Assembly (NCBI RefSeq): GCF_018977255.1
Contig: NW_024704742.1
Coordinates: 138,324,001 to 138,388,000, forward strand
DNA length: 64,000 nt
Direction: 5' to 3'
Source of the DNA: Callorhinchus milii
Lineage: Eukaryota
Shown: one piece after another, positions 1 through 64,000 of the stretch
Position numbering within the stretch: position 1 is the stretch's first letter
Layout of the letters: each line of letters starts with the position of its first letter
Position numbers and translations under genes: made by a program
The notes under the pieces: generated by a model
Told to the model about the DNA's origin: nothing
What the model saw: only the letters and a program-made list of their open reading frames with translations
Databases searched by the model: none

Positions 1-916
1 CGTTTGTCACCTCCCACCTGGATTACTCCCAACTCATTCCTCGCCGGTCTCCCCAGCTCCACCATTCACAAGATCAGTTCATTCAGACTCTGCCGCTCGT
101 TTACTGACCTGGACCAAACTCCGTACCCACATCTCACCAGTTGTAGCCCTTGCTCCACTGGCTCCCAAACACCGGACGGATTGACTTCCAAGATCCTCAC
201 ACTCGTGTTCAAATCCCTTCACTCTCTGGCACCTCCCTATCTCTCCGATATCCTCACTCCCCAATCCAGCATCTGGCGCCTCCACTCGACTGGCACCGGC
301 TCCTGCTTATCCCTCGCACCTTCCGACCCACCATTAGAGGTTGCGCTTTCAGCCACTATGCCCTGAAACTCTGGAACACTCTCCCTCAATTCCTCCGCCT
401 TGCCCTTCTCTTCCCGTTTCCAAGTCCCGCCTAAAAACCTTTCTTTTCAACTGTGTTTACGGTCACCTCCCCAGCTCGGAGTCAGGCTCTGCTACTGTTA
501 AGCGCTCCGAGACTCTACCCTTTATGGAGGGCATTATATAAATGCAAGTTGTTGTTAACTGCCTTAAATGGGGTGCAGTGCAGCTTCGCAATAACACATT
601 TCACTGTGGTGTGGATTTACTTATAACATGGTTACACTGTGGAACCCACTCCTTGTGTAAGAGCACAGCTTGCTGCCCACATGTCAGCTGTTTTTTTTGA
701 GCTTGAAGGACTGAAGTTACCAGCTTACACAGCAAGGTCCCAGATACTGCAGGAAATGGATGATCAAATTATCATGTGATTAAGGCCAGGACATTGACCG
801 GGAGAAATGTGCTCTTTTACAGGACCAGGAAGAGGCCATTCAGCCTCTCAAGCCTGTTCCACCATTCTATAAGATCACGGCTGATCTGTACCTCAACTCC
901 AATTGCCCGCCTTTGC

Positions 917-1470
917 TTGTCGGCCTCCCCAACTCCTCCCTCCATAGGCTGCAGATCATCCAGAACTTTGCAGCCCATGTCCTCTCCCGCACCAGGCTCG
1001 GTGACCCCATCTCCTCCATCCTCGCCCGACTCCACTGGCTTCCCATCACACAGAGGATACAGTTCAAGAACCTTCAAAGCCCTCCATGGTCTTGCTCCCC
1101 ACGACCTCTCTGACCTCCTAACCCCCAACCATCCTGTTCGCTCCCTCCGCTCAGGGGGCTCCAGCCTGCTTCACGTTCCCCTCCTCGCTCACCCCACTAT
1201 CGGCGGGTTGGCCTTCCGTCACTCTGCCCCCACCCTCTGGAACTCCATCCCGCAGTTCATCCGTGTTACCCCCTCCCTCGCCACCTTCAAGACCCACTCA
1301 AGACCCTCCTCTTCGACTGTTCTTTCGATCTCCCTGTTTCCACCCCTGCTTTCCATCCTCCCTGACCCCGACCCCCAGCTCGGGTCTGTAACTCTTGTCT
1401 GTCCAGCACCTTGGGATGTCCTCCTGACGTGAAAGGCACTACAAATGTAATTTTGTTGTGGTTGTTGTCG
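917..1470 (+). mobile_element. L2 3' fragment nested in a CR1 3'-end fragment (~820-2075)
   Basis: [33 protein letters not shown] duplicated at both ends. Confidence 0.85.
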
Positions 1471-1511
1471 TTTGCCCCATAATCCCTTGATCCTCTGACC
1501 TAACAAACATC

Positions 1512-1816
1512 GGAGTCCTGTAGCTCAGTGGTTAGAGCACTCGCTTTGCAAGTGAGAGACCTGAGTTCAATTCCAGGCAGAGGGCGAAACCTTGGGCAAG
1601 TTTCCTTACTCCACACAGAGCCTAATAATAATCCCTCCAAAACCCAAAACAATAATAAATTGGTCATTTTCAATCTACGACTGTTTGTGGGACATTGCTG
1701 TGCGCAATTGGCTGCCGCGTTCGCCCACAAATATACAGTCAATTCACTTTACAGTATATTCTGTGAAGCGCTTTGGAACGTCCTCTTCTACATTGGATTA
1801 TTATTATTATTATTAT
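1512..1816 (+). mobile_element. tRNA-Ala-derived SINE, short subfamily
   Basis: A box TAGCTCAGTGG, B box GTTCAATTCC, TGC anticodon loop, Deu-like domain, (ATT)n tail. Confidence 0.9.
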
Positions 1817-3784
1817 CCACCTTAGTCTGGACAATGTGAATGGATACAGTCATAATCCACAGTCTTGTGGCGGAGAGAGAGAGAGAGAGACTTCCAGATT
1901 TCCACTACCTTTGGGTGAAAAATTGGCTCTGATTTCAGTCCAAAATGGCCTGGCTCTAATTTTAAGATGATGCCCCCACCCTGTTCTGGATTTCCTTGCC
2001 AGAGGAAATAGTTTCTCTGTAGCCGCCCTATCGAATCCCTTTAGCATTTAAAAAAAACTCAATTAGATCACAATTTCCAATAATATCATGGAATCTACAG
2101 TGATCACCTGCATAGGCACTGGCAGCACCTTGGTTTAAACTCTGGAACACTCTTCCTCTATCCCTCCGCCTTGCCCCGTCCTTCCCCATCTTCAGATTGC
2201 GCCTGAAGACCTTGCTATTTGACCGTGCCTGCGGTCACCTCTCCTGGCTTGGCATCGTGTTCCGCCACTGTCAAGCGCTCTGGGATGCTACCCTGCGTGA
2301 GGGGCACTGTGTAAATGCAAGTTGTTGTTGTAATGCCTCATCTGAAGGACAGTTCATTCAGCAACGTTGTGCCATCACTGTACTGTGTGATGGAGTGTTA
2401 GCCTAACCTGGGAGCTTTAGTCTTGGAAGTATGGCTTGAATTCACAACCTTTTGAGCCGATGCATGCAACAGCTTGGTTGTAGTGAACCAGAGTGGAATA
2501 AATGTTTTAAATGGTGCTCTGTTTTATTGGGTTCATGAAGTAAACAGATGGATCACATTGTCGACATCTCTCTGTAATATCCTGAACCACCTTCGCTCAA
2601 TGAGTAAATAAATTATAGATTTGATTGTGGTAACATGTTTATTGTTTTATAATATGCTGGAGGGCTGAGTGAGAAACTCAAATCTATAATAATGTGTCTG
2701 GTCAAAAACAACTTGCTCTTATGTAATGTCTTTCACTCAGAGTTAATGCCTTGATGCTTCACAGAGACACAGGAACAGGAGGAGGCCATTCAGCCCCTCA
2801 GACCTATTCAACCCTTCTATGAGACCATGGCTGATCTGTATCTCAACTCCATTTATCTGATTTTGCTCCATATCTCTTGATACCCTGACCTAACAAATAT
2901 GTATTCACCTCAGTCTTAAATCAGCCTTTTTGGGGGAGAGAGAGAGTTCCAGATTCCCACTACCTTTGGGTGAAAAACTGCCTCCTGATTTCACTCCTAA
3001 ATGGCCCGGCTGTAATTTTAAGATGATGCCCCTTATTCTGGATTCACCATCGGAGGCAATAGTTTCTCTGTATCTACCCTATTGATTCCCTTTATCACGG
3101 TAAACATCTCAATCAGATCACTTCTAAACTCAGGGAATACAGACCAAGTTAATGCAACATTGTCCTCATAATTTAACCTTTTAAACCCTGGTATCATTCT
3201 ATAAGTCCTGTAGCTCAGTGGTTAGAGCACTCGCCTCGCAAACGAGAGGACCTGGGTTTGATTCCCGGGCAGCGCAATATGTTGGGCAAGTTTCCTTACT
3301 CCAACGCCTCTGTTTATTGAACAGCAAGTAGGAACCTGGTTGTTAATCAATTGTCAGATTGCTTTTCCGGGGTAATAATGCCTTAAAAAAAATTAGCTGC
3401 TGCGTTTCGCCCACAAAATACACAGCAACTACACTTTACAGTGTATTCTGTGAAGCGCTTCAAGACGTCTCAAAGACGTGAAAAGGCTCTGTATCAAATG
3501 CAAGGATTATTATTAAAATAATAATTTTATTATTAATCTGGTAAAACTGCGCTGCATCCCCTCCACAGCCAATATATCTTTCCTGAATTTGGTATAAAGC
3601 TCTCTCTTCCTTCTTCTAAGTCATTTATATAGACGGTGAAAAGCTGAGGCCCCAGCAATAATAATAATAATCCTTGCATTTGATATAGCGCTTTTCACGT
3701 CTTCCAGACAGAATATGCTATAAAGTGAATTGACAGTATATTTTGTGGACGAAACGCGACAGCCAATTGCACACAGCAGTACAG

Positions 3785-4500
3785 ACCCCTGGGGGGACAC
3801 CACTATCTCGCCAATCAGAGAACGTTCCCCCTATCCCTACTCTTTTGTTTCCTGCCTCCCAACCAATTACCAAGCCACGTTGCGAGGTTACCTCCGATTC
3901 CACGGGCTTTTATCCATTTTTGCTCATAACCTCCTGTGCGGAACCTTATCAAATGCCTCTGAAAGTCCATGTAGACGACATCCGTAGACACTCTCTTATC
4001 CACCGTGTTAGTGACCTCAAAAAATTCAATTAGATTCGTCAGACATGACCTAACCTTCATAAATCCACGCTGACTCTCTTTGATTAGCTCATACTTGTCC
4101 AAGTGCTCAGTCACTCTGTCCCTGATAAGCGATTCCAACAACTTCCCAACAATGGAAGTGAAGCTGACAGGTCTGTACTTACCTGGTTTCTCCTTCCCTT
4201 CATTTTTATTTTTATAATGGAGTGATATTTGCAGTTCCCCCTAAGGGCACAATTCCTGAATGTAGAGCTTTAGAAAATTATCACTAACACATCTGCAATT
4301 TCCTCCCCTATTTCTTTTAATGCCCTGGGGTGGAAATTATCAGGTCCTGGAGATTTGTCTATCTTTAGCTCCATTATTTTCTCCAATGCCATTTTTTAAA
4401 TACATATTAAATCCATTAAGTACTTCTCTTTGACTTATTTTAGGATTCCCTTGTACCGCTGGTAATTTGGTCTCTTACTCTGTGTGAAAACGGATGTAAG
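3785..4500 (-). mobile_element. Degenerate CR1 RT fragment
   Basis: SQRGFMKVRSCLTNLIEFFE, VVYMDFQ. Confidence 0.85.
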
Positions 4501-4689
4501 ACCACCATTCCCTTATTATAATAACAATAATCCTTGCCTTTTATATAGCGCCTTATCACATCATTGAGACATCTGGAAGATGTGATAAAGCGCTACATCA
4601 AACGCAAAGATTATTATTATTATTATTATTATTCTGTAAAGTGCTTCCATAGATTTCTTACATGCGCCTACCTTGTGTAGAAAGTACTG

Positions 4690-5014
4690 AGGAGAAGCAA
4701 ATGTGCTATTTTGTTTATTTGACTGCTGGAAATGTTTTGCTGTCAAATTTGCAGCTGGGTTGCAGAAGGGGAAGGAAGAGGGAGGGAAGAGGGAGGGAGG
4801 GAGGGGTTTAGACATCGAGTGACTTTGATAAAAGTCTGCTTCTCATAAGTGGATCAGCAGCTCTGCTCGGAAACAGGGAATAGTGCGTGTCAGCCTCTGC
4901 TCCACTTAACTCCCACTCTGCTCCAACATGTGAGTGTGCCTTTCTAGTGCGGATTTGTAGCCCGAGAATGAGAGAGAGAGGGATCGGTCGACTCTGAAAC
5001 CATAGGAATTCCAG
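4690..5014 (+). promoter_or_regulatory. Candidate promoter and non-coding first exon (duplicate at ~53475-53798)
   Basis: Unique island among repeats, purine tract (GGGA)n, donor CAG|GTACGG at 5014 (alternative AA|GTAAGG at 5046); inferred from position only. Confidence 0.35.
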
Positions 5015-5612
5015 GTACGGTATGAACAACAGGCTGGATTTAACAAGTAAGGAAGCAACTATAGCGAGCGGTGAATAATGGTAGATTTATTAGGGAAGTC
5101 GTCATGGTGTGTTAGTGTGGACTTGTTATTGTGGATTTGCGTAAGTGACTTTAATGCCATCTGGGATATTCTCTGTCCCTGTCCTGGCATCACAAACAGA
5201 AGTAGAATTATAACTGCATTGGAAGAGCAAAACAAATGGGATACAGTTAATACAGTTAGCGTTATTATTATATAACTTAAAAGACATCCTCTTGACATGA
5301 AAGGCGCGATATCAATTGAAAAGATTAATAATATGCCTTGCGTTTGATATAGCACCAGGTCATGTTGTTGAGACGTGAGTTGCACACAGCAATTTCTCAC
5401 AAATAGCCATGTAGTGAGTGACCAGTTTTATCTGGGGGATTGGTGGGCTGGGCACCAAGGGAGAGAGAGAGAAACTCCCCTCTCTTTTTGAGTAGTGTTG
5501 AGCTCCGGGAAGCGAACCTCAAAAGGCAGGTGGGAGCTTGGATTAACATCTTATCTGAAAGCACCCCAGACAATTTAGTGCTCCTCTCGGTTTACACTGG
5601 AGCCTGGTCTGT

Positions 5613-5958
5613 AACAACAACAACAAGATTCCATTTATTGAGCGCCTTTCACGTCGGGAGGACGTCCCAAGGCGCTGTACAGTTGGGTCAGGACCCGAGG
5701 AGGGGGGAAATGGTCAGGGTGAGGGGAGGGAAGGGAGGGAGCGAGGAGGGGGTAGAGAGTCGAGAGCGGCGCTGAAGGCTGAAGGTCAAAGAGAAAGGTC
5801 TTGAGACCGGCCTTGAAGGAGGAAAGGGAGGAAGCGGCGAAGGCACTGGGGGATAGAGTTCCAGAGCCTCGGGGCTGAGAGGCTGAAGGCCACCGATGGT
5901 AGGGCGGTTGGGGCGGGGGATGTGGAGCAGACCGGAGCCGGAGGAACGGAGGGTAGTA
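5613..5958 (-). mobile_element. L2 3' end fragment, young subfamily
   Basis: Reverse complement closely matches 60150-60535; (CAA)n tail. Confidence 0.85.
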
Positions 5959-6619
5959 ATGTCAAAGTCAAAGTGCCCACGTGGGGCTTGAACTCACAAT
6001 CAAGAAACATTTGTGTATGTGTTTGTGGAGTCCTGTAACGTATTGGTTAAGAGCGCTCGCCTCGCAAGTGAGAGGACCTGGGTTTGTTTCCTGGGCAGGG
6101 CAAGGTTCCTACCCCACACGCCTTTGTTTACCTAGCAGTAAGTAGAAACCCGGTTGTTAGTCGATTGGAGGATCGCTTTCCCAGGGGTAATAACCCCTTC
6201 AAAAAATATAAATAACAAAAATAATTTGGTCACTCAATCCAAGACTTGTTTGTGGGACACTGCAGTGCGCAATTGGCAGCTGCGTTTCACCCACAAAATA
6301 TACAGTCAATTCCCTTTACAGTATATTCTGTGAAGTGCTTTGAGACGTCTCGAAGACGTGATATCAAATGCAAGGATTATTATTATTATTGTTGTGTGTG
6401 TGCTGGGGAGGGGAAACACTTCTGTTTACATGTCTATTGGGTGAAGTGACCCTGTGATACATTCCCTCGTGTTGGTTTGACTGTTGAGGGCAATCTGTTT
6501 GACACACATGCGGACGAGATTTGACATTCTGTCGAAATATCTCAATTGTTCTGTTGTCATGTAACTCTTTCCTCATCAGAGCTGTGCTGCTGTCACTGAG
6601 CCTGTAAAAGGCAGCCCAC

Positions 6620-7165
6620 CTTCAGCATGTTTCGCCGGTCTCCCTCGCCGGTCTCCCATCCACTACCATCCATAAAATCCAACTCATTCAAAACTCTGCC
6701 GCCCGCATTCTCACCCGCACGAAACTCTGCTCCCCGATCCCCCCAGTCCTGGCCAGACTGCACCGGCTGCCTGTCCCAGGGAGAATCGACTTCAAGATCC
6801 TCACCCTCGTATTCAAGTCTCTGCACTCCTCTGCACCCCCCGACCTCTCTGACCTCCTTCTTCAGCACAGTACCTGTTGCCTTCGTTCCTCCGGGTCTGG
6901 CCTCCTCCTCATCCCCCGATTCCTCCGCTCAACCCTCGGCGGCAGTGGCTTCAGTCACTACGCCCCGAAGCTCTGGAACTGCCTTCCTCACTCCCTTCAC
7001 CTCGCTCCCTCCCTTCCCATTTTCAGGTCTCTGCTGAAGACCTTGCTTTTCGACCGCGCCTTCGGTCGCCTTCCCACCCCTCCCCCTGGCTCGATCCCGG
7101 GATCCTAAACTGTAAAGCGGTCTGAGACGCCGTCCGACGTGGAGGGCGATATATAAATCCAAGTT
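6620..7165 (+). mobile_element. L2 3' fragment
   Basis: IQNSAARILT / RIDFKILTL-type sequence and L2 tail. Confidence 0.8.
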
Positions 7166-10100
7166 ATAGATTAATAGAATGTTATGACACAGAAGGAGGC
7201 CATTCGGCCCATCGAGTCTGTGCGGCTCTTTGACAGAGCGTCACTTTCATTAACCCCAAATCACCAGCTTTCTCCCCATAACCTGCAAACCCGTCTTCCC
7301 CGATACCTGTCCAGTCCTCTCTTAAAAGCTGTTATCGAATCGGACTTCACTGCCCTTTCGGGCGGATCATTCCAAATTCTAACAACTCGCTGAGTGAAAA
7401 ATTTCTTCTAACCTCCCCTCTGCTTCTTTTGGTAGATATCTTAAGACTGTGACCACGGGTCACAGACACACCTACCAGCGGAAATAGCTTTTCCCTAACT
7501 CGCCTGTCAAAACCTTTCATGATCTTGAAGACCTCTATCAGGTCCCCGCGTAACCTTCTCTGCTCTAATGGGAAAGGTCCTAACTTCTCCACTGTCCTCA
7601 TAGCTAAGGTTCCCCATTCCTGGTATCATTCTCGTGAATCTCCTCTGCACCCTTTCCAGTGCCTTAATGTCCTTCCTGAGGTAAGGTGCCCAGAACTGGA
7701 CGCAGTACTCCAGCTGAGGCCTAACCAGTGTTTTGTACAGATTAACCATAACCCCTACTCTTATACTCTATGCCCTACTAATAAAGCTCAGTACACCAAA
7801 TGCCTTTTTTACTGCCCTATCTACCTGCCCCACTACCTTTAATGATTCGCTTACTTGAACACCCAGATCTCTCTGTACGTTCACCCCCTTAAGATTGAGC
7901 TCCAAGTCTATATTGCCTCCTATCATTTTTCCTACCTAAGTGTATCACCTCACACTTATCCACATTGAAATCCATCTGCCACATGTCAGCCCATTCCACC
8001 ATTCTGTGTATGTCTGCCTGCAGTTGGTTACAGTCCTCCTCACTATTTACTGCCTGACCTAACTATATCATCTGCAAACTTGGAAATAGTGCTCCCTATG
8101 TCCAGATCATTAATATATATTAGAAAGAGCAGTGGTCCCAATACCGATCCCTGGGGGACACCGCTGCACACCTCCTTCCATTGCGAGAAACACCCATTAA
8201 CCACCACCCTCTGCTCTCTGTCACTCAGCCAGTTCCTAATCCAAACTGCCACTGTCCCCTTAATACCGTGGGCCTCTAATTTTTTATTAATCTCTTATGC
8301 GGTACTGTGTCAAAAGCCTTTTTGAAATCCATGTAAATAACGTCCACCGCATTTCCCTCATCAACCCTCGCAGTCACCTCTTCAAAAAATTCTATTAGAT
8401 TTGTTAGGCAAGATTTGCCTTTAACAAATCCATGTTGGCTGTCTCTAATTACCTCGTGTTCCTCTAAGTAGAGATTTATTCTGTCCCGGATTATGGTCTC
8501 CAGTAGTTTTCCTATTACCGAAGTTAGGCTGACTGGCCTGTAATTTCCGGGTTTGTCTTTCTGCCCCTTTTTGTAGAGGGGGTAACATTAGCCACTCTCC
8601 AGTCTCTTGGCACCACTCCTGTGTCCAATGACGATTGAAATATAATGGCCAAAGCCTCCGCTATTTGAACCCGTATCTCCCACAGCAACCTTGGGTGAAA
8701 CCCATCTGGTCCTGGTGACTTATCAATTTTGAGCCCAGTCAATCTTTTCAGAACTTCCTCTCTGTCTATAGTAATCTGATCTATTTCCTCTACCCTCTCA
8801 TCCAATACTGCGGCATTTGGGGCATCCATTTCCGTTGTGAAGACAGATGCAAAGTACTCGTTCAGTACATCAGCCATCCTCTGCCTCCACAACAAGATTG
8901 CCGTCATTGTCTTTGATTGGCCCCACCCTACCTTTAACTAACCTTTTTTCCTTTATGTGCTTGTAAAATATTTTAGGATTCCCCTTTATGTTACCCGCTA
9001 ACCTCTTCTCATGCGATCTTTTAGCCTGTCTTATCACTCTTTTAAGATCACTCCTGCATTCTCTATAATGCGCTTTGCTATCCTCAGTGTCTTGCGTCTT
9101 CCAATTGTCGTACGCCGTCTTCTTCTTTTTCATCCTAGACAGAATATCCCTGGTCATCCAGGCTGGCTTGGTTCTCGCACATTTCCCTTTTGTGGGAATA
9201 TATCTATTTAGACCTTGAGCTATCATATCTTTGAAGATCTCCCATTGCTCATGAGTCGTTTTATCTGCTCGTCTCACTTGCCAGTCCACCAACTCTAGGT
9301 CCCTTTTTAGCCCATCAAAATTAGCCCTTTTCCAGTCAAGCATTTTCACCCTTGACTGTACTTTGTCCCTGTTCATGAGTAATCTAAATCTAATAATATT
9401 ATGGTCACTGTTACTTAGATGATCCCCTACCGAAACCTGTTCAACCTGACCTATTTCATTCCCCAGAACTAAATCCAGCAATGCTTCCTTCCTCGTAGGA
9501 TTGGAGACATACTGCTTAAGAAAATTTTCCTGTACACAGTCTATGAATCTTTCTCCTGCCTTGCCCTTAGCGCTACTAAGGAGTCCTGTAGCTCAGTGGT
9601 TGGAATCCTGTAGCTCAGTGGTTATAGCACTCGCTTTGCAAGTGAGAGACCTGAGTTCAATTCCAGACAGGGCCAAACCTTGGGCAAGTTTCCTTACTCC
9701 ACACAGAGCCTAATAATAATCCCTCCAAAAAACAGTAATAAATTGGTCATTTTCAATCTACGACTGTTTGTGGGACATTGCTGCGCGCAATTGGCTGCCG
9801 CGTTCGCCCACAAATATACAGTCAATTCACTTTACAGTGTTCTGTGAAGCGCTTTGGGACGTCCTCCCGACGAGAAAAGCGCTATATCAAATGCAAGGAT
9901 TATTATTATTATTATTACTATTTTGCCAGTCTATATTGGGATAATTGAAATCCCCCATTATCACAACTCTGTTCGCCTATCTACATCTATCCGTGATCTG
10001 GTTGCAGATCTGCTCCTCTATCTCCTTCCCGCTGTCTGGTGGTCTATAGTAAACCCCCATCAGTGTAACCACTCCTTTCTTATTTCTTATCTCTAACCAG

Positions 10101-10430
10101 ATGGATTCTGTTGTCGGGCCCTCCAGAGCCTCGTTCCTTTCTACAGCTATAATTGTATCCTTAACTAATATTGCCACCCCTCCTCCTTTTCTTCCTTCTC
10201 TATCCTTCCTGAACACCTGGAATATATCCGGAATATTTAACTCCCATTCCTGTTCTGGCTTGAGCCATGTCTCGGTTACTGCCACCACATCGTAACCCCC
10301 TACGGCCAGTTGAACCTTCAGCTCATCAACCTTATTCCCTAAGCTACGTGCATTCAGGTGCATGCATTTGAGGAAATTGTCCGCTTGTACCTGCTCTACA
10401 CTTCCCACTTGTCTTTTTCCTCTAATCTCT
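7165..10430 (-). mobile_element. CR1-clade LINE, most of ORF2 (APE endonuclease + RT), frameshifted
   Basis: [76 protein letters not shown]. Confidence 0.95.
9581..9918 (+). mobile_element. SINE, short subfamily, inserted in the CR1 endonuclease region
   Basis: Splits CR1 ORF2; doubled head; TACTA on both flanks. Confidence 0.9.
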
Positions 10431-11276
10431 TAATTGTTGTTGTTGAATTTGTTGTTGTTTCAAAGAATATTCTTCAATTCCTGACATAAATATTACTGGT
10501 GCATTGCCTTTGTTTCAGGATATTGTAGTTCCGCTTCCTGGATTAGGGGAAATAAAAGCAATAATCCTTGCATTTGGTATAGTACCTTGTCACGTCTTCG
10601 AGATGTCTCAAAGCGCTTCACAAAATATAGTGTAATGTGAATTGACTGTATATTTATGGACAAAACGCGACAGCCAATTGCGCACAGCAGTGTCCCACAA
10701 ACAGTCGTGGATTGAGTGACCAAATTATTATTATTATTTTCTTTTGAAAGGATTATTATCCCCGGAAAGCGATCCGCCATTGACTAACAACCAGGTTCCT
10801 ACTCACTGCTAGGTAACCAGAGGCTTACGGAGTAAGGAAACTTGCCCAAAGTTACGCCCTGCCTGGGAGTCCAGCCCAAGTCCTCTCGCTTGCGAGGCAA
10901 GTGCTAAGTTACAGAACTCCACAAATGACTGTGTGTGGTTAAGGTACATTGATTGACTTTCTCTCTCACCCCAAACCTTTTCTACTTTTCCCCAATTAGG
11001 AATAATGTGTGGCTCATAGAACTTACTAGGGAGGCAATTTGCCTGTGCTGGCTCTCTGAAAGTCTTCTCAGTTTAGTCCCACTCTCCTGCTCTTTTCTCA
11101 AACCCTACCATATTTTTCCCATCACTTTTGCTTTCACTTTTGTGTCGACTGGTTGCAATGTGGTGCCGGGAGAGCACAGCATTGTTGGAGGATTATGTGC
11201 CATCCTTCAGATAAGACGTTAAACTGAGGTCCCATCTGTGCCTGTTGAGGTCAAAAGTAACAAAAGGTCTTTCCTT

Positions 11277-11935
11277 CAACAACAACAAGATTACATTTAT
11301 ATAGCGTCTTTCACGTCAGGAGGACGTCCCAAGTGTACAGCATTTCAGACCCAAGCTGGGGTCAGGGGGGGAGAAGGGAGGGGAAGGGGGGTGACCGATG
11401 ACATGCTCGAAGAGGAGGGTTTTGAGGCGGGACTTGAAGGAGGCTAAGGAGTGGGTGAGGCAGAGTGACTGGGGGATGGAACTCCAGAGGTTGGGGGCAG
11501 AGTGGTTGAAGGCCCTCCCGCCAATGGTGGGGCGGGTGGGTCGGGGAACATGGAGCAGGTCGGAGCCGACTGAGTGGAGGGAGCGGGCGGGTTGGTAGGG
11601 GGTTTGGAGGTTGCAGAGGTAGGGTGGGGCGAGGCCATGGAGGGCTTTATTGGTGAGGATCAGGATCTTGAACTGGATCCTCTGAAGGGTAGAGAGCCAA
11701 TGGAGTCGGGCGAGAGTGGGGGAGATGGGGTCACGGAGTTTGGTGCGGGAGAGGACACGGGCTGCAGAGTTCTGGATTATCTGCAGTCTGTGGAGGGAGG
11801 AGTTAGGAAGGCCGACACGCAGGGGGTTTGCATAGTTGAGCCTCGAGGTGATGACGGCATAAACAAGAGTTTCAGCGCCTGAGGGGTGAGATAGTGGCGG
11901 AGTCGGGCGATGTTACGGAGGTGAGGGAAGGCACC
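11277..11935 (-). mobile_element. L2 3' fragment
   Basis: Reverse complement of the L2 RT C-terminus; (CAA)n tail. Confidence 0.85.
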
Positions 11936-13770: not shown

Positions 13771-14087
13771 GGAGTCCTGTAGCTCAGTGGTTAGAGCACT
13801 CGCTTTGCAAGTGAGAGACCTGAGTTCAATGCCAGGCAGAGGGCGAAACCTTGGGCAAGTTTCCTTACTCCACACGTCTAATAATAATCCCTCCAAAAAC
13901 AATAATAAATTGGTCATTTTCAATCTACGACTGTTTGTGGGACATTGCTGTGCGCAATTGGCTGCCGCGTTCGCCCACAAATATACAGTCAATTCACTTT
14001 ACAGTGTGTTCTGTGAAGCGCTTTAGGACGTCCTCTCGACGTGAAAAGCGCTATATCAAATGCAAGGATTATTATTATTATTATTAT
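13771..14087 (+). mobile_element. SINE, short subfamily
   Basis: Near-identical to the copies at 1512, 9581 and 35653. Confidence 0.9.
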
Positions 14088-14988: not shown

Positions 14989-15166
14989 CACTTTCCTTTC
15001 TAAGCAACCTGTCCTCATAATTTAACCCTTTTATCCGTGGCATTATTCTGGTGAACTCACCCCATTGTGAGCAAAATGGCTTGTCTACACCATATAGTTG
15101 CTGCATTTGAACATTTATGTAAAAAAAATTAATAGTGGAAAAAATCTTTTTGTTTCAGTGAATTCC

Positions 15167-52300: not shown

Positions 52301-55300
52301 ATAATAATTTTATTATTAATCTGGTGAAACTGCGCTGCATCCCCTCCACAGCCAATATATCTTTCCTGAATTTGGTATAAAGCTCTCTCTTCCTTCTTCT
52401 AAGTCATTTATATAGACGGTGAAAAGCTGAGGCCCCAGCAATAATAATAATAATCCTTGCATTTGATATAGCGCTTTTCACGTCTTCCAGACAGAATATG
52501 CTATAAAGTGAATTGACAGTATATTTTGTGGACGAAACGCGACAGCCAATTGCACACAGCAGTACAGACCCCTGGGGGGACACCACTATCTCGCCAATCA
52601 GAGAACGTTCCCCCTATCCCTACTCTTTTGTTTCCTGCCTCCCAACCAATTACCAAGCCACGTTGCGAGGTTACCTCCGATTCCACGGGCTTTTATCCAT
52701 TTTTGCTCATAACCTCCTGTGCGGAACCTTATCAAATGCCTCTGAAAGTCCATGTAGACGACATCCGTAGACACTCTCTTATCCACCGTGTTAGTGACCT
52801 CAAAAAATTCAATTAGATTCGTCAGACATGACCTAACCTTCATAAATCCACGCTGACTCTCTTTGATTAGCTCATACTTGTCCAAGTGCTCAGTCACTCT
52901 GTCCCTGATAAGCGATTCCAACAACTTCCCAACAATGGAAGTGAAGCTGACAGGTCTGTACTTACCTGGTTTCTCCTTCCCTTCATTTTTATTTTTATAA
53001 TGGAGTGATATTTGCAGTTCCCCCCCAAGGGCACAATTCCTGAATGTAGAGCTTTAGAAAATTATCACTAACACATCTGCAATTTCCTCCCCTATTTCTT
53101 TTAATGCCCTGGGGTGGAAATTATCAGGTCCTGGAGATTTGTCTATCTTTAGCTCCATTATTTTCTCCAATGCCATTTTTTAAATACATATTAAATCCAT
53201 TAAGTACTTCTCTTTGACTTATTTTAGGATTCCCTTGTACCGCTGGTAATTTGGTCTCTTACTCTGTGTGAAAACGGATGTAAGACCACCATTCCCTTAT
53301 TATAATAACAATAATCCTTGCCTTTTATATAGCGCCTTATCACATCATTGAGACATCTGGAAGATGTGATAAAGCGCTGCATCAAACGCAAAGATTATTA
53401 TTATTATTATTATTATTCTGTAAAGTGCTTCCATAGATTTCTTACATGCGCCTGCCTTGTGTAGAAAGTACTGAGGAGAAGCAAATGTGCTATTTTGTTT
53501 ATTTGACTGCTGGAAATGTTTTGCTGTCAAATTTGCAGCTGGGTTGCAGAAGGGGAAGGAAGAGGGAGGGAAGAGGGAGGGAGGGAGGGGTTTAGACATC
53601 GAGTGGCTTTGATAAAAGTCTGCTTCTCATAAGTGGATCAGCAGCTCTGCTCGGAAACAGGGAATAGTGCGTGTCAGCCTCTGCTCCACTTAACTCCCAC
53701 TCTGCTCCAACATGTGAGTGTGCCTTTCTAGTGCGGATTTGTAGCCCGAGAATGAGAGAGAGAGGGATCGGTCGACTCTGAAACCATAGGAATTCCAGGT
53801 ACGGTATGAACAACAGGCTAGATTTAACAAGTAAGGAAGCAACTATAGCGAGCGGTGAATAATGGTAGATTTATTAGGGAAGTCGTCATGGTGTGTTAGT
53901 GTGGACTTGTTATTGTGGATTTGCGTAAGTGACTTTAATGCCATCTGGGATATTCTCTGTCCCTGTCCTGGCATCACAAACAGAAGTAGAATTATAACTG
54001 CATTGGAGGAGCAAAACAAATGGGATACAGTTAATACAGTTAGCGTTATTATTATATAACTTAAAAGACATCCTCTTGACATGAAAGGCGCGATATCAAT
54101 TGAAAAGATTAATAATATGCCTTGCGTTTGATATAGCACCAGGTCATGTTGTTGAGACGTGAGTTGCACACAGCAATTTCTCACAAATAGCCATGTAGTG
54201 AGTGACCAGTTTTATCTGGGGGATTGTTGGGCTGGGCACCAAGGGAGAGAGAGAGAAACTCCCCTCTCTTTTCGAGTAGTGTTGAGCTCCGGGAAGCGAA
54301 CCTCAAAAGGCAGGTGGGAGCTTGGATTAACATCTTATCTGAAAGCACCCCAGACAATTTAGTGTTCCTCTTGGTTTACACTGGAGCCTGGTCTGTAACA
54401 ACAACAACAAGATTCCATTTATTGAGCGCCTTTCACGCCGGGAGGACGTCCCAAGGCGCTGTACAGTTGGGTCAGGACCCGAGCAAGGGGGAAATGGTCA
54501 GGGTGAGGGGAGGGAAGGGAGGGAGCGAGGAGGGGGAAGAGAGTTGAGAGCGGAGCTGAAGGCACGGTCAAAGAGAAAGGTCTTGAGACCGGCCTTGAAG
54601 GAGGAAAGGGAGGAAGCGGCGAAGGCACTGGGGGATAGAGTTCCAGAGCCTCGGGGCTGAGAGGCTGAAGGCCACCGATGGTAGGGCGGTTGGGGCGGGG
54701 GATGTGGAGCAGACCGGAGCCGGAGGAACGGAGGGTAGTAATGTCAAAGTCAAAGTGCCCACGTGGGGCTTGAACTCACAATCAAGAAACATTTGTGTAT
54801 GTGTTTGTGGAGTCCTGTAACGTATTGGTTAAGAGCGCTCGCCTCGCAAGTGAGAGGACCTGGGTTTGTTTCCTGGGCAGGGCAAGGTTCCTACCCCACA
54901 CGCCTTTGTTTACCTAGCAGTAAGTAGAAACCCGGTTGTTAGTCGATTGGAGGATCGCTTTCCCAGGGGTAATAACCCCTTCAAAAAATATAAATAACAA
55001 AAATAATTTGGTCACTCAATCCAAGACTTGTTTGTGGGACACTGCAGTGCGCAATTGGCAGCTGCGTTTCACCCACAAAATATACAGTCAATTCCCTTTA
55101 CAGTATATTCTGTGAAGTGCTTTGAGACGTCTCGAAGACGTGATATCAAATGCAAGGATTATTATTATTATTGTTGTGTGTGTGCTGGGGAGGGGAAACA
55201 CTTCTGTTTACATGTCTATTGGGTGAAGTGACCCTGTGATACATTCCCTCGTGTTGGTTTGACTGTTGAGGGCAATCTGTTTGACACACATGCGGACGAG

Positions 55301-55946
55301 ATTTGACATTCTGTCAAAATATCTCAATTGTTCTGTTGTCATGTAACTCTTTCCTCATCAGAGCTGTGCTGCTGTCACTGAGCCTGTAAAAGGCAGCCCA
55401 CCTTCAGCATGTTTCGCCGGTCTCCCTCGCCGGTCTCCCATCCACTACCATCCATAAAATCCAACTCATTCAAAACTCTGCCGCCCGCATTCTCACCCGC
55501 ACGAAACTCTGCTCCCCGATCCCCCCAGTCCTGGCCAGACTGCACCGGCTGCCTGTCCCAGGGAGGATCGACTTCAAGATCCTCACCCTCGTATTCAAGT
55601 CTCTGCACTCCTCTGCACCCCCCGACCTCTCTGACCTCCTTCTTCAGCACAGTACCTGTTGCCTTCGTTCCTCCGGGTCTGGCCTCCTCCTCATCCCCCG
55701 ATTCCTCCGCTCAACCCTCGGCGGCAGTGGCTTCAGTCACTACGCCCCGAAGCTCTGGAACTGCCTTCCTCACTCCCTTCACCTCGCTCCCTCCCTTCCC
55801 ATTTTCAGGTCTCTGCTGAAGACCTTGCTTTTCGACCGCGCCTTCGGTCGCCTTCCCACCCCTCCCCCTGGCTCGATCCCGGGATCCTAAACTGTAAAGC
55901 GGTCTGAGACGCCGTCCGACGTGGAGGGCGATATATAAATCCAAGT

Positions 55947-58900
55947 TATAGATTAATAGAATGTTATGACACAGAAGGAGGCCATTCGGCCCATCGAGTC
56001 TGTGCGGCTCTTTGACAGAGCGTCACTTTCATTAACCCCAATCACCAGCTTTCTCCCCATAACCTGCAAACCCGTCTTCCCCGATACCTGTCCAGTCCTC
56101 TCTTAAAAGCTGTTATCGAATCGGACTTCACTGCCCTTTCGGGCGGATCATTCCAAATTCTAACAACTCGCTGAGTGAAAAATTTCTTCTAACCTCCCCT
56201 CTGCTTCTTTTGGTAGATATCTTAAGACTGTGACCACGGGTCACAGACACACCTACCAGCGGAAACAGCTTTTCCCTATCTCGCCTGTCAAAACCTTTCA
56301 TGATCTTGAAGACCTCTATCAGGTCCCCGTGTAACCTTCTCTGCTCTAATGGGAAAAGTCCTAACTTCTCCACTGTCCTCATAGCTAAGGTTCCCCATTC
56401 CTGGTATCATTCTCGTGAATCTCCTCTGCACCCTTTCCAGTGCCTTAATGTCCTTCCTGAAGTAAGGTGCCCAGAACTGGACGCAGTACTCCAGCTGAGG
56501 CCTAACCAGTGTTTTGTACAGATTAACCATAACCCCTACTCTTATACTCTATGCCCTACTAATAAAGCTCAGTACACCAAATGCCTTTTTTACTGCCCTA
56601 TCTACCTGCCCCACTACCTTTAATGATTCGCTTACTTGAACACCCAGATCTCTCTGTACGTTCACCCCCCTTAAGATTGAGCTCCAAGTCTATATTGCCT
56701 CCTATCATTTTTCCTACCTAAGTGTATCACCTCACACTTATCCACATTGAAATCCATCTGCCACATGTCAGCCCATTCCACCATTCTGTGTATGTCTGCC
56801 TGCAGTTGGTTACAGTCCTCCTCACTATTTACTACCCTACCTAACTTTATATCATCTGCAAACTTGGAAATAGTGCTCCCTATGCCCAAGTCCAGATCAT
56901 TAATATATATTAGAAAGAGCAGTGGTCCCAATACCGATCCCTGGGGGACACCGCTGCACACCTCCTTCCATTGCGAGAAACACCCATTAACCACCACCCT
57001 CTGCTTTCTGTCACTCAGCCAGTTCCTAATCCAAACTGCCACTGTCCCCTTAATACCGTGGGCCTCTAATTTTTTTATTAATCTCTTATGCGGTACTGTG
57101 TCAAAAGCCTTTTTGAAATCCATGTAAATAACGTCCACCGCATTTCCCTCATCAACCCTCGCAGTCACCTCTTCAAAAAATTCTATTAGATTTGTTAGGC
57201 AAGATTTGCCTTTAACAAATCCATGTTGGCTGTCTCTAATTACCTCGTGTTCCTCTAAGTAGAGATTTATTCTGTCCCGGATTATGGTCTCCAGTAGTTT
57301 TCCTATTACCGAAGTTAGGCTGACTGGCCTGTAATTTCCGGGTTTGTCTTTCTGCCCCTTTTTGTAGAGAGGGGTAACATTAGCCTCTCTCCAGTCTCTT
57401 GGCACCACTCCTGTGTCCAATGACGATTGAAATATAATGGCCAAAGCCTCCGCTATTTGAACCCGTATCTCCCACAGCAACCTTGGGTGAAACCCATCTG
57501 GTCCTGGTGACTTATCAATTTTGAGCCCAGTCAATCTTTTCAGAACTTCCTCTCTGTCTATAGTAATCTGATCTATTTCCTCTACCTTCTCATCCAATAC
57601 TGCGGCATTTGGGGCATCCATTTCTGCTGTGAAGACAGATGCAAAGTACTCGTTCAGTACATCAGCCATTCCTCTGCCGCCACAACAAGATTGCCGTCAT
57701 TGCCTTTGATTGGCCCCACCCTACCTTTAACTAACCTTTTTTCCTTTATGTGCTTGTAAAATATTTTAGGATTCCCCTTTATGTTACCCGCTAACCTCTT
57801 CTCATGCGATCTTTTAGCCTGTCTTATCACTCTTTTAAGATCACTCCTGCATTCTCTATAATGCGCTTTGCTATCCTCAGTGTCTTGCGTCTTCCAATTG
57901 TCGTACGCCGTCTTCTTCTTTTTCATCCTAGACAGAATATCCCTGGTCATCCAGGCTGGCTTGGTTCTCGCACATTTCCCTTTTGTGGGAATATATCTAT
58001 TTAGACCTTGAGCTATCATATCTTTGAAGATCTCCCATTGCTCATGAGTCGTTTTATCTGCTCGTCTCACTTGCCAGTCCACCAACTCTAGGTCCCTTTT
58101 TAGCCCATCAAAATTAGCCCTTTTCCAGTCAAGCATTTTCACCCTTGACTGTACTTTGTCCCTGTTCATGAGTAATCTAAATCTAATAATATTATGGTCA
58201 CTGTTACTTAGATGCTCCCCTACCGAAACCTGTTCAATCTGACCTATTTCATTCCCCAGAACTAAATCCAGCAATGCTTCCTTCCTCGTAGGATTGGAGA
58301 CATACTGCTTAAGAAAATTTTCCTGTACACAGTCTATGAATCTTTCTCCTGCCTTGCCCTTAGCGCTACTAAGGAGTCCTGTAGCTCAGTGGTTGGAATC
58401 CTGTAGCTCAGTGGTTATAGCACTCGCTTTGCAAGTGAGAGACCTGAGTTCAATTCCAGACAGGGCCAAACCTTGGGCAAGTTTCCTTACTCCACACAGA
58501 GCCTAATAATAATCCCTCCAAAAAACAATAATAAATTGGTCATTTTCAATCTACGACTGTTTGTGGGACATTGCTGCGCGCAATTGGCTGCCGCGTTCGT
58601 CCACAAATATACAGTCAATTCACTTTACAGTGTTCTGTGAAGCGCTTTGGGACGTCCTCCCGACGAGAAAAGCGCTATATCAAATGCAAGGATTATTATT
58701 ATTATTATTACTATTTTGCCAGTCTATATTGGGATAATTGAAATCCCCATTATCACAACTCTGTTCGCCTATCTACATCTATCCGTGATCTGGTTGCAGA
58801 TCTGCTCCTCTATCTCCTTCCCGCTGTCTGGTGGTCTATAGTAAACCCCCATCAGTGTAACCACTCCTTTCTTATTTCTTATCTCTAACCAGATGGATTC

Positions 58901-59220
58901 TGTTGTCGGGCCCTCCAGAGCCTCGTTCCTTTCTACAGCTATAATTGTATCCTTAACTAATATTGCCACCCCTCCTCCTTTTCTTCCTTCTCTATCCTTC
59001 CTGAACACCTGGAATATATCCGGAATATTTAACTCCCATTCCTGTTCTGGCTTGAGCCATGTCTCGGTTACTGCCACCACATCGTAACCCCCTACGGCCA
59101 GTTGAACCTTCAGCTCATCAACCTTATTCCCTAAGCTACGTGCATTCAGGTGCATGCATTTGAGGAAATTGTCCGCTTGTACCTGCTCTACACTTCCCAC
59201 TTGTCTTTTTCCTCTAATCT
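55947..59220 (-). mobile_element. CR1-clade LINE, duplicate copy with a 332-aa open RT segment
   Basis: ORF 56671-57669 with NYRPVSLTS, QHGF, YMDFKKAFD, GVPQG and FADD. Confidence 0.95.
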
Positions 59221-59606
59221 CTTAATTGTTGTTGTTGAATTTGTTGTTGTTTCAAAGAATATTCTTCAATTCCTGACATAAATATTACTGGTGCATTGCC
59301 TTTGTTTCAGGATATTGGAGTTTCGCTTCCTGGATTAGGGGAAATAAAAGCAATAATCCTTGCATTTGATATAGTACCTTGTCACGTCTTCGAGATGTCT
59401 CAAAGCGCTTCACAAAATATAGTGTAATGTGAATTGACTGTATATTTATGGACAAAACGCGACAGCCAATTGCGCACAGCAGTGTCCCACAAACAGTCGT
59501 GGATTGAGTGACCAAATTATTATTATTATTTTCTTTTGAAAGGATTATTATCCCCGGAAAGCGATCCGCCATTGACTAACAACCAGGTTCCTACTCACTG
59601 CTAGGT

Positions 59607-60535
59607 GAGGTCAGCTCAACGTGCAAAAAACCGAGGCCCTCCTGATTGGCTCACGTCAGCGCCTCCGCACCTCAGGCGCTGACACCATCAGCATCCAAGG
59701 CTGCACTCTCCACCTCTCAAAGCCAGTCAGGAACCTCGGCATTTTGTTCGACCCTGAGCTGTCCTTTCTCCCTCACATCCGCACCACAACTGGCACCGCC
59801 TTCCATCACCTCCGGAATATCGCCAGACTACGGCATTACCTCACCCCTCACGCTGCTGAAACCCTGGTTCACGCCTTTGTCACCTCAAGGCTGGACTATG
59901 GGAACTCTCTCCTCGCCGGCCTTCCCGCCACCTCCTCCACAAGCTGCAGGTCATTCAGAACTCTGCAGCTCGTGTACTGTCCTGCACCAGGCTTCGGGAC
60001 CACATCACTCCCACCCTCGCTCGCCTCCACTGGCTCCCCATCCCCCAGAGGATTGATTTCAAGATCCTCATCCTCACCTACAAGGCTATTCACGGCCTTG
60101 CTCCCTCCTACCTCTCCAACCTACTATCCCCTACCTACCTGCCCGTACCCTCCGTTCCTCTGGCTCCGGTCTGCTCCACGTCCCCCGCCCCAACCGCCCT
60201 ACTATCGGTGGTCGGGCCTTCAGCCTCTCAGCCCCGAGGCTCTGGAACTCCATCCCCAGTGCCTTCGCCTTGCTTCCTCCCTTTCCTCCTTCAAGGCCGG
60301 TCTCAAAACCTTTCTCTTTGACCGTGCCTTCAGCTCTCGACTCTCTTCCTCCTCCTCGCTCCCTCCCTTCCCTCCCTCACCCTGACATTTCCCCCTCCTC
60401 TCTCTCTCCCTCCCTTCCCTCCCCTCACCCTGACCATTTCCCCCCTGCTCGGGTCATGACCCAACTGTGCAGCGCCTTGGGACGTCCTCCTGACGTGAAA
60501 GGCGCTCTATAAATGGAATCTTGTTGTTGTTGTTG
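59607..60535 (+). mobile_element. Young 5'-truncated L2-clade LINE, only in copy B
   Basis: KTEALLIG, RNLGILFD, VTSRLDYGNSLLAGLP, LHWLP; (TTG)n tail; TSD TAGGT at 59602-59606 and 60536-60540. Confidence 0.95.
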
Positions 60536-63500
60536 TAGGTAACCAGAGGCTTACGGAGTAAGGAAACTTGCCCAAAGTTACGCCCTGCCTGGGAGTCCAG
60601 CCCAAGTCCTCTCGCTTGCGAGGCAAGTGCTAAGTTACAGAACTCCACAAATGACTGTGTGTGGTTAAGGTACATTGATTGACTTTCTCTCTCACCCCAA
60701 ACCTTTTCTACTTTTCCCCAATTAGGAATAATGTGTGGCTCATAGAACTTACTAGGGAGGCAATTTGCCTGTGCTGGCTCTCTGAAAGTCTTCTCAGTTT
60801 AGTCCCACTCTCCTGCTCTTTTCTCAAACCCTACCATATTTTTCCCATCACTTTTGCTTTCACTTTTGTGTCGACTGGTTGCAATGTGGTGCCGGGAGAG
60901 CACAGCATTGTTGGAGGATTATGTGCCATCCTTCAGATAAGACGTTAAACTGAGGTCCCATCTGTGCCTGTTGAGGTCAAAAGTAACAAAAGGTCTTTCC
61001 TTCAACAACAACAAGATTACATTTATATAGCGCCTTTCACGTCAGGAGGACGTCCCAAGTGTACAGCATTTCAGACCCAAGCTGGGGTCAGGGGGGGAGA
61101 AGGGAGGGGAAGGGGGGTGACCGATGACATGCTCGAAGAGGAGGGTTTTGAGGCGGGACTTGAAGGAGGCTAAGGAGTGGGTGAGGCAGAGTGACTGGGG
61201 GATGGAACTCCAGAGGTTGGGGGCAGAGTGGTTGAAGGCCCTCCCGCCAATGGTGGGGCGGGTGGGTCGGGGAACATGGAGCAGGTCGCAGCCGACTGAG
61301 TGGAGGGAGCGGGCGGGTTGGTAGGGGGTTTGGAGGTTGCAGAGGTAGGCTGGGGCGAGGCCGTGGAGGGCTTTATTGGTGAGGATCAGGATCTTGAACT
61401 GGATCCTCTGAAGGGTAGAGAGCCAATGGAGTCGGGCGAGAGTGGGGGAGATGGGGTCACGGAGTTTGGTGCGGGAGAGGACACGGGCTGCAGAGTTCTG
61501 GATTATCTGCAGTCTGTGGAGGGAGGAGTTAGGAAGGCCGACACGCAGGGAGTTTGCATAGTTGAGCCTCGAGGTGATGACGGCATAAACAAGAGTTTCA
61601 GCGCCTGAGGGGTGAGATAGTGGCGGAGTCGGGCGATGTTACGGAGGTGAGGGAAGGCACCTATTCGAAATGAGTTTCTTCTGGGATCCTAGCCAACAAT
61701 CCTTCAGATAAAATAGGTCTCCCACTTCATTTCTGTAGTTGGACGTTGCTTTGCAAAAATTGACGGCCGTATTCACCACCTAGTCCTGTAGTTCAGTGGT
61801 TAGAGCACATGCCTCGCAAGCGAGAGGACTGGGTTCAATACCCAGGCAGGGCGAAACGTTACCAAGTTTCCTTACTCCACACACCTCTGTTTACCTAGCA
61901 GTAAGTAGGAATCCTGTTGTTAATAAAAATAATGTTTTTTATTACGACATACTACGACTGTTTGTGGGACGCTGCTGTGCCCAATTGGCTGCCGCATTTC
62001 ACCAACAAAATATACAGTCAATTCACTTTATAGTATATTCTGTGAAGCGCTTTGAGAAGTTTTGAAGACATGATAAGGCAATATATCAAATGCAAGGATT
62101 GTTATATTATTATTATCCCTGTGTTATCCAGTGTCCCCTAAAGGGCTAGGAAAGATTTCAGCCAAGTGTGATTCTCTCTGTCAGCGCAGTAAAGCAGAGA
62201 CGGGGACCGCAAATAGTTTTAGCTTTTAATCGACAGATACTTTGGTTTTAAAACACTCTCCTCCTTCTAATCGCTGTTCTGATGATTTGATCTCACATTT
62301 AATGCAGAACTGAGCTAAGCCTGATCATTAGGTAGGTGTGGCCTTCAGCACCCAGACCTCTCCTTCAGTTTCCTTAAACAACCATGTTGATCCTCAAAGT
62401 AATTTAAGAAATGAAAAATGTGGCCAGGCTGGTCTTGGGAATAAAGGCAGATTTATTCGCAGATTATTGTTTTTGTAAGAGAAAGCTCCAGGGCAAGCTT
62501 CCAAAACAACTGGCACTTCCTACCACCTTTCACATAGGGGGGGAACATCTCAAAGCGCTTTACAGACACAGTGGACGCCTATCAGAGCGGAGGTCTTATT
62601 AAAGAATTCAGGAGCCTATAAGCTTTATCGTGGAGTTCCTGTAGAATTTTGATTAGAGCGAACGAGAGAATCCGGTTTCGATTCCCAGGCAGGATGAACC
62701 CGTAGGCAAGTTTCCTTACTCCGCACACCTCTGTTTACCAGCAGTAAACAGGGGTAATAATTTTTCACTTTTTTTAAAAATAATACTAATTTAGTCATTG
62801 AATCCACAACTGTTTGTGGGACACCTCTGTGCACAATTGGCTGCCACATTTCACCAACAAAATATACAGTCAACTCACTTTACAGTATACTCTGTGAAGT
62901 GCTTTGAGATGTCTTGAAGACGTGATAAGCCGCTATATCAAATGTAAGGATTATTATATATTATACAATTACTATAGAAGTACTATGTAAATGCAAATTG
63001 TGAAATGTACAGAAAACCAATTTCAAAATTAAGGCTGTATTAAAGAATTTGCCAAATTGTGTTTGTGTTTAAGGGGATTTTTATTCTTAGGAGATTTTAA
63101 ACCGAGACCTCATGCGTGTCTTTTCAGGTGTATGTTAAAGATCCCACAACACTATTGGAAAAGAGAAGGATATTTCTCCCTTAGCTGGCAATCCTCCACA
63201 TGAAATGATCACTAACTTCATAGCTGTCTGCAAATTTGCTGACACGCTTGCTTACAAATACACAAGCGACTGCACTTGACAGTAATAGCCTATGAAATGC
63301 TTTGAGACAGTTTAACATTGCGGACAGTGTAATTACACATGCAGTCAAGCAACAACAGCAACAACTTCGATTAATATAGCGCCCTCCACGCCGGACGGCG
63401 TCTCGGAGCTTCATGTCTGGTTGTTCAGTGTTATTTCACAGTCCATTGAGAACCTTGATCTACAGATTAATCTGTCATCAGATTATGTCATTTATGGAGT

Positions 63501-64000
63501 CCTGTAGCTCAGTGGTTAGAGCACTCGCTTTGCAAGTGAGAGACCTGAGTTCAATGCCAGGCAGAGGGCGAAACCTTGGGCAAGTTTCCTTACTCCACAC
63601 GTCTAATAATAATCCCTCCAAAAACAATAATAAATTGGTCATTTTCAATCTACGACTGTTTGTGGGACATTGCTGTGCGCAATTGGCTGCCGCGTTCGCC
63701 CACAAATATACAGTCAATTCACTTTACAGTGTGTTCTGTGAAGCGCTTTAGGACGTCCTCTCGACGTGAAAAGCGCTATATCAAATGCAAGGATTATTAT
63801 TATTATTATTATCAATTCTGGTTCCAATGGACCATTACTTCTCATGTGTCTGCATAACAACTTTTTCTTTCTATCAGTACTGGATCCTATTTTTAGATCC
63901 TTATTTGTCTAATTTATGGAGTCAGACACATGTTTGAAAGGAAGGCCTGTCTTAGGACCGAGCCTTCGGTCACCTTCCTACCCCAAATAATAATAACCCT

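Follow-up and report, generated by a model that had tools for sequence, protein, structure and literature searches.

A near-identical direct repeat flanking LIFR in the assembly of Callorhinchus milii: assembled haplotypes or a young tandem duplication?

The window considered here, i.e., the whole stretch of 64,000 bases that was analysed, contains at 15298–37913, between two copies of a repeated block, the LIFR gene of Callorhinchus milii. The encoded protein is identical to RefSeq XP_042187998.1 (P0003; 953 aa), named there "LIFR-like". The features of the window are as follows:

1–14275, + strand: copy 1 of the repeated block, the upstream flank of LIFR, mostly SINE and LINE pieces and without receptor exon (self-BLAST, tblastn)
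15159–15364, + strand: first coding exon of LIFR, encoding the signal peptide, with the ATG at 15298 and an in-frame ATG 13 codons upstream
19843–22411, + strand: four exons of cytokine-binding module 1 (LIFR_N, LIFR_D2, first WSXWS-type motif)
22944–23216, + strand: Ig-like exon, with 100% identity to C. milii LIFR
25884–29018, + strand: four exons of cytokine-binding module 2 (LIFR_D4, second WSXWS-type motif)
29683–34314, + strand: six exons of the membrane-proximal FN3 region
35307–36435, + strand: transmembrane exon and box1-type exon
37270–37913, + strand: last coding exon of LIFR, with the assembled stop at 37498 and the conserved end at 37911–37913
41900–47990, no strand: zone in which the join of the two units most likely lies
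48778–64000, + strand: copy 2 of the repeated block, continuing past the right edge of the window (self-BLAST)
59607–60540, + strand: 934-bp 5'-truncated retroelement with a (TTG)n tail and a 5-bp target duplication, present in copy 2 only (BLAST alignment; no Pfam match)

The Pfam domains LIFR_N, LIFR_D2, LIF-R_Ig-like and LIFR_D4 each match single exons in this order, which gives two cytokine-binding modules, D1 included, around an Ig-like domain. Each module bears a WSXWS-type motif, and FN3 repeats, one membrane helix and a box1 follow, fn3 being above the Pfam cut-off in 2 of the 5 FN3-region exons scanned (a 77-bp exon was left out). The best solved-structure matches are also LIFR. The domain order is that of the elasmobranch "LIF receptor subunit alpha a" and of the LIFR/OSMR of bony vertebrates, and the protein shares 46–52% identity with those of sharks and rays, with which it clusters in the tree. 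Shark and ray proteins possess an extra N-terminal Ig-like module, whereas the elephant-shark protein does not, and tblastn found no remnant of the corresponding exon. In OSMR, the N-terminal cytokine-binding module is without its first half; an OSMR identity was rejected given the presence of LIFR_N and the position of the protein outside the OSMR clade.

Bases 1–14275 recur in direct orientation at 48778–64000 with 99.4–99.8% identity (self-BLAST of the 64-kb window), far beyond chance, and the match overruns both edges of the window, as the initial annotation had stated. It is composed of two segments, 1–10814 with 48778–59606 (99.39% identity, reaching base 1) and 10810–14275 with 60536–64000 (99.77%, reaching base 64000). 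In the BLAST alignments, the copies differ by 50 substitutions, 36 of which are transitions, and by 12 small indels, 8 of a single base; divergence amounts to 50/14,275, i.e., 0.35%, and to 11/3,808 (0.29%) outside repeats. Over 1–3466 the sole difference is 6 bp of an (ATT)n run, as had been claimed for the first ~3.4 kb. Identical and diverged blocks alternate along the copies (dispersion P about 6e-7), a pattern of which gene conversion could be the source, or equally allelic mosaics or polishing. True tandem segmental duplications are defined as direct repeats over 1 kb with an identity of 90% or more; the present repeat has these properties, and so do false duplications.

The 934-bp insertion, which we take to be L2-like, has its matching empty site in copy 1 at 10810–10814. 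It was absent from the description of the repeat in the initial annotation. The spacing between copies is 48,777 at the left, grows to about 48,790 by 10.8 kb and reaches 49,725 past the insertion, so that the proposed 48.8-kb unit holds at the left and the unit is not simply of that length. No receptor exon was found by tblastn in the part seen twice, the first coding exon beginning only at 15159. Therefore, although the repeat is real, a duplication of the whole receptor locus, as originally announced, is not visible within the window, which shows only exon-free flank twice.

As assembled, 18 exons of the gene are intact and the last alone is broken. The window protein equals UniRef V9KAG5 (P0005; 1092 aa), presumably transcript-derived, over its first 934 residues, except at residues 628 and 880, where P0005 agrees with copy 2. 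Beyond this point, the last exon shows six single-base frame breaks within 376 bp relative to the intact protein (near 37438, 37527, 37687, 37734, 37784 and 37813), five of which are lost bases, mainly within runs of C or G, in an exon of 63% G+C. The tail of P0005 is full, alignable to shark tails and endowed with three YxxQ motifs; these motifs are present in the DNA of the window, but out of frame or behind the stop as assembled. All five other members of the protein cluster have a full tail. Altogether, about 640 bp of tail contain six frameshifts and a single amino-acid change; the rate seen between the copies predicts 0.54 indels for this length (P about 2e-5). Judging from the sequence, the short tail of this copy is almost certainly a consensus or sequencing error because of these six single-base frame breaks, which replace the "copy-specific tails" of the initial annotation by damage to an otherwise intact, shark-conserved tail.

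The damage being confined to the last exon, and the 953-aa form being listed in RefSeq, one could instead propose that the duplication is real and that the window's copy truly lacks its tail after residue 934. Such a receptor would keep the ectodomain, the membrane helix and box1 but be deprived of the three YxxQ motifs and of the tyrosine motif before them; it would bind JAK, stay silent towards STAT3 and act as a decoy or dominant-negative receptor. We consider this very improbable: six indels with a single amino-acid change cannot build up while the flanks diverge by 0.35%, the breaks favour C/G runs of a G+C-rich exon, and the full tail is kept by all other cluster members. Moreover, the same copy exhibits five small deletions over some 820 bp of a CR1 reading frame, which copy 2 retains intact.

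A second LIFR copy is already annotated in RefSeq, since a second model, XP_042188003.1 (P0002; "LOW QUALITY PROTEIN: LIFR", 1029 aa), lies on a contig of identical size, both models being assigned to a contig of 139,202,109 bases. This model has a full tail, but lacks residues 281–330 of the Ig domain and carries a lesion at 201–202 that, in our reading, one missing C would explain. LOW QUALITY RefSeq models are edited against the genome, and the intact tail of P0002 may thus be partly corrected. P0002 and the window's copy are broken at different places, at which P0005, P0001, P0004 and P0006 are intact; the older models carry R331, a position at which both assembled copies show H. The existence of two models (953 and 1029 aa) makes the receptor copy predicted past the window probable, and a second, nearly full-length gene probably follows; the predicted position of its signal exon, 64884–65089, is arithmetically correct.

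The overrun of both window edges would also suit a larger array of at least three units, or a duplicate that is not in tandem and stops short of the gene. P0002 spans the signal peptide to the tail, and homology therefore probably extends through the gene. The idea of a larger array gained no ground, as no third LIFR model was present in the protein cluster (6/6 members) and a weak search of shorter proteins for a third copy or fragment returned 2 matches among 8000 candidates, both being OSMR proteins from other species. These two possibilities are, in our opinion, the most improbable of all. The cluster contains a single older RefSeq model, and one LIFR model or its isoforms was found in 17/18 shark and ray species, the exception having as second model a partial sequence (994/996 identical) on a contig of 183 kb.

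The origin of the assembly bears on these observations. The supplement of PMC8302630 describes a FALCON primary assembly with duplicated heterozygous contigs and with terminal overlaps ranging from 10 kb to 2 Mb, a merging limited to overlaps of 30 kb or more, PBJelly gap filling as the last step, and a BAC library from the same male. False duplications are described as looking like whole-gene gains, mostly heterotype and with more erroneous k-mers; a gap most often separates the false copies, and wrong gap filling can join them (Ko et al., 2022, PMC9516828). The LIFR copies resemble heterotype false duplications (Ko et al., 2022, PMC9516828; Rhie et al., 2021, PMC8081667) by their adjacency and near-identity with allele-level divergence (0.35% between copies vs 0.25% between window and individual), by their annotation as "gene" and "gene-like", by their excess of errors (six frame breaks in 376 bp and the lesions of the second model) and by the FALCON CLR assembly. 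They differ from the typical case by the lack of a gap between them, as no N occurs in the 64,000 bases, but gaps were filled with PBJelly and wrong filling can hide a gap. The authors of PMC3964593 analysed gene duplication and heterozygosity, and their results may be directly relevant to the number of copies and to the divergence of alleles. We found no published heterozygosity figure for C. milii in the literature, and the papers listed on C. milii LIFR, on LIFR/OSMR duplication in cartilaginous fishes and on segmental duplication in C. milii included none on a duplication of the locus.

Contigs of four DNA runs, all from the same study, were placed on 42300–61200, a stretch outside which the last LIFR exon lies. 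Such contigs break at repeats and drop variants, and their joints and loose ends are dominated by SINE/LINE copies. Among the 32 pieces listed for the four DNA samples, the window differs at 34 letters in 13,857 (0.25%), and 47091–47504 exists in four different versions across the four samples. Nine stretches of 42300–49303 are unbridged among these pieces, seven of them at least 75% repeat, and none of the pieces spans the junction, which is not proof of absence. At site 51272, a letter foreign to both assembled copies is the only one in X4 and has about half depth in X1, a pattern that is simplest under a single locus. In the 40 of 64 rows of differences covered, the copy-diagnostic site 53820 is ambiguous: extra depth, read without a single-copy baseline, accompanies the G-bearing contig in three of four runs and could reflect a second form in most individuals.

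A candidate join lies at about 47700, where a cut-off SINE is fused to an L2-like 3' end with clean microhomology. Truncated SINEs are common in this region. No long young repeat occurs in 42–48 kb, and no neighbouring gene to place the join was recognised, the 75 minus-strand frames of 43380–48330 giving no Pfam match above cut-off in a scan that also took in 1 of the 54 plus-strand frames. This candidate breakpoint fits a real and very young tandem duplication of about 49–50 kb, fixed or segregating as a copy-number variant, which would have arisen by unequal exchange or microhomology-mediated repair and would provide two near-identical full-length LIFR genes, the frame breaks of both copies remaining assembly errors. 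The gapless copies, the R331 that fits neither of them, the two RefSeq models on one contig size and the block alternation that gene conversion could give point the same way. Nevertheless, we hold such a duplication to be possible rather than probable: the divergence is inside the allelic range, the assembly is known to keep haplotype duplicates, the cluster has its single older model, the relatives are single-copy and no junction-spanning contig appeared among the pieces listed.

We rather favour, with some reserve, a false haplotype duplication. The animal would have one LIFR gene, whose two parental haplotypes, one with the recent 934-bp retroelement upstream, would have left a long-read assembler as separate sequences, with no haplotype purging, before being set head to tail, as in heterotype false duplications. 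The copies would thus be alleles, and the insertion may have helped to split them. With read support divided between them, each copy would have kept single-base errors of its own that went uncorrected, i.e., the frameshifted tail in the window and the broken ectodomain exons in the other, and the gap may have disappeared when gaps were filled or because the join falls within a repeat. Allele-level divergence and different errors in each copy make parental versions side by side likelier than a young gene array, and we also counted in favour the indel excess of the tail, the assembly record, the single-copy relatives and site 51272. Were all lesions real, the animal would live without an intact LIFR. 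On the other side, besides the lack of an N gap, contig ends overlapping by at least 30 kb should already have been merged by the script of the assembly's authors, no long young repeat was there to mislead the assembler, the SINE/L2 fusion resembles a biological breakpoint, R331 may represent a third haplotype, the BAC library being from the same male (or an error), and the depth at 53820 is raised. Real duplications do occur in this receptor family, since gp130 is described as triplicated in cartilaginous fishes (PMC6238376). False concatenation of haplotypes, which the initial annotation itself had named as a refutation, is somewhat likelier than a real duplication.

If the doubling is an artefact, the reference holocephalan annotation presents LIFR as two broken genes in place of what is probably a single intact one, cytokine-receptor counts are inflated in a key outgroup and a tail-less receptor has been invented, which is a point for curation. 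If it is real, a receptor that appears single-copy in 17/18 of the sharks and rays examined would have changed its copy number very recently, which is of modest interest as gene dosage. A true tail-less copy would be a newborn membrane decoy without STAT3-recruiting YxxQ motifs, which would surprise a specialist, and would repeat the tandem duplication that produced LIFR and OSMR in bony vertebrates. Were all lesions real, the animal would live without an intact LIFR.

Self-BLAST of the window confirmed the direct repeat, spaced by about 48.8 kb, that the initial annotation had described, with matches reaching base 1 and base 64000. Positions 1-10814 match 48778-59606 at 99.39% identity and 10810-14275 match 60536-64000 at 99.77%, both in direct orientation. 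The proposed single 48.8 kb unit holds to the left of a 934-bp insertion in copy 2, which shifts the spacing to 49.7 kb on its right. The leftmost stretch (1-3466) differs, as had been noticed, solely by two ATT units. In the BLAST alignments, the copies are separated by 50 substitutions (36 of them transitions), which are clustered (dispersion P about 6e-7), and by 12 small indels. The window contains zero N bases, and no LIFR exon lies inside the part present twice, which harbors the following retroelements:

59607-60540, copy 2 only: 934-bp insertion that has a tail of (TTG)n repeats and is flanked by a 5-bp target duplication
7140-10460 (copy 1) and 55920-59250 (copy 2), minus strand: CR1-type LINE

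The insertion at 59607-60540, presumably L2-like, has no Pfam match; it is a young, 5'-truncated insert within a SINE, and a polymorphic insertion under either reading of the duplication. In copy 2 the CR1 reverse-transcriptase frame stays open over 341 codons and has an RVT_1 match in Pfam; in copy 1 it is broken by five small deletions within about 820 bp.

The gene of the window comprises 19 coding exons on the plus strand (15298-37500), translating to 940 aa. Pfam matches to single exons (LIFR_N, LIFR_D2, LIF-R_Ig-like, LIFR_D4 and fn3) are arranged as in LIFR, whose architecture the gene fits, and its Ig exon shows 100% identity to the LIFR of Callorhinchus milii; an OSMR identity was ruled out by domain content and tree position. 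Downstream of the stop, and probably inside the 3' UTR, lies a minisatellite of about 10 copies of ~73-bp units (40459-41175). Two LIFR introns carry arrays of one 29-bp unit on opposite strands (23356-23759, 14 copies; 28479-28664, 6.4 copies), both close to the end of a CR1-like fragment. An AT-rich, window-unique stretch at 43560-44142, with minus-strand polyadenylation-like signals and no Pfam match nearby, could be where a convergent gene has its 3' end.

All six members of the 90% cluster of the window protein were examined. P0003 (XP_042187998.1) is the window gene model plus 13 N-terminal residues. P0002 (XP_042188003.1), a LOW QUALITY model and as such edited, is on a contig of equal length (139,202,109 bases). 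P0002 is very probably the gene copy starting beyond window position 64000. RefSeq already annotates both LIFR copies. P0005 (V9KAG5), which we take to be transcript-derived, is intact (1092 aa). P0001, P0004 and P0006, which we take as models from an older assembly, have intact tails and mis-predicted membrane exons.

In the assembled sequence, a stop codon at 37498 ends the last exon's frame upstream of one tyrosine motif and two of the YxxQ motifs, and the remaining YxxQ and the C-terminus are encoded in other frames. Frameshift-aware alignment to P0005 located six single-base breaks at 37438-37813 (five bases missing, one extra), mostly within C or G runs; once these are corrected, the tail differs by one amino-acid change, and the P0005 reading is the version conserved in sharks and rays. 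The copy-to-copy rate predicts 0.54 indels in 640 bp (P about 2e-5 for the excess). The second model, P0002, has its lesions elsewhere, at residues 201-202 and 281-330. Two copies with lesions at different sites, alongside a recorded intact protein, form the pattern expected of uncorrected long-read errors. The copy-specific tails initially proposed are not supported by this comparison, and the tail difference is, on these alignments, almost certainly an error.

The second receptor copy announced earlier does exist in the assembly; the biological reality of a young duplication is unproven and somewhat more doubtful than probable. We favor, as reasonably probable, a false duplication of the LIFR locus. 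The copies diverge by 0.35% (11/3,808, or 0.29%, outside repeats), which is close to the 0.25% (34 of 13,857 letters) by which contigs of four other samples, X1-X4 from one study, differ from the window in the longest 32 of about 320,000 pieces, a choice favoring low-variation stretches. The named RefSeq records match a PacBio CLR/FALCON assembly with a longest scaffold of 139.2 Mb. According to its supplement (PMC8302630), this assembly had duplicate heterozygous contigs, and terminal overlaps that ranged from 10 kb to 2 Mb; merging was limited to overlaps of at least 30 kb, and PBJelly gap filling was the final step. Ko et al. (PMC9516828) describe false gene gains of like kind, with excess errors and gaps sometimes wrongly filled, and Rhie et al. 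(PMC8081667) restricted PBJelly use, avoiding greedy closures. Moreover, 17 of 18 shark and ray species have one LIFR model or its isoforms (12 clusters; members of eight were examined, the other four being single-member clusters). In Heterodontus francisci, which has the models P0011 and P0095, a partial second model (994/996 identical, on a 183-kb contig) resembles a retained haplotig.

The window shares allelic divergence and excess errors with heterotype false duplications, and differs from them in having no gap between the copies, a point in favor of a young duplication, or a copy-number variant, that is real, a reading we hold possible though rather doubtful. Under the merging rule in the supplement, a 49-kb terminal overlap should also have been merged. 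The likely join zone lacks a long young repeat, and a SINE/L2 fusion near 47700 resembles a microhomology breakpoint, although truncated SINE matches are common in the window. R331, found in the older models, is present in neither assembled copy; according to the supplement, the BAC library was made from the same male. The four long contigs all have the letter of copy 1 at 53820, but extra depth in three runs may be the other letter. In the longest 32 pieces, nine stretches of 42300-49303, including 47505-47789, are unbridged. One substitution at 44829, common to all four runs, and a one-base gap each in 44336-45321 and 45730-46232, seen in three runs, are either errors in the window or alleles private to it. 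We found no literature on this duplication; the main supplement of PMC3964593 may hold duplication and heterozygosity results.

Regarding the family, Redmond et al. (PMC6238376) place a cartilaginous-fish sequence inside an OSMR/LIFR clade and report three gp130 copies. In our tree of 22 proteins, whose root hangs on one long gp130 branch, cartilaginous-fish LIFR falls outside the clade of bony-vertebrate LIFR and OSMR (support 96/93), so it could be the pro-orthologue of these two. Shark, ray and some sturgeon/paddlefish LIFRs (P0007-P0017, P0020, P0021, P0023) bear an extra Ig-like module of ~90 aa between signal peptide and D1, whereas it is missing from elephant-shark LIFR and both aligned tetrapod LIFRs, and a search of the window (interval compared: 15365-19842) revealed no remnant. 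The extra module may be ancestral, with loss on more than one occasion.
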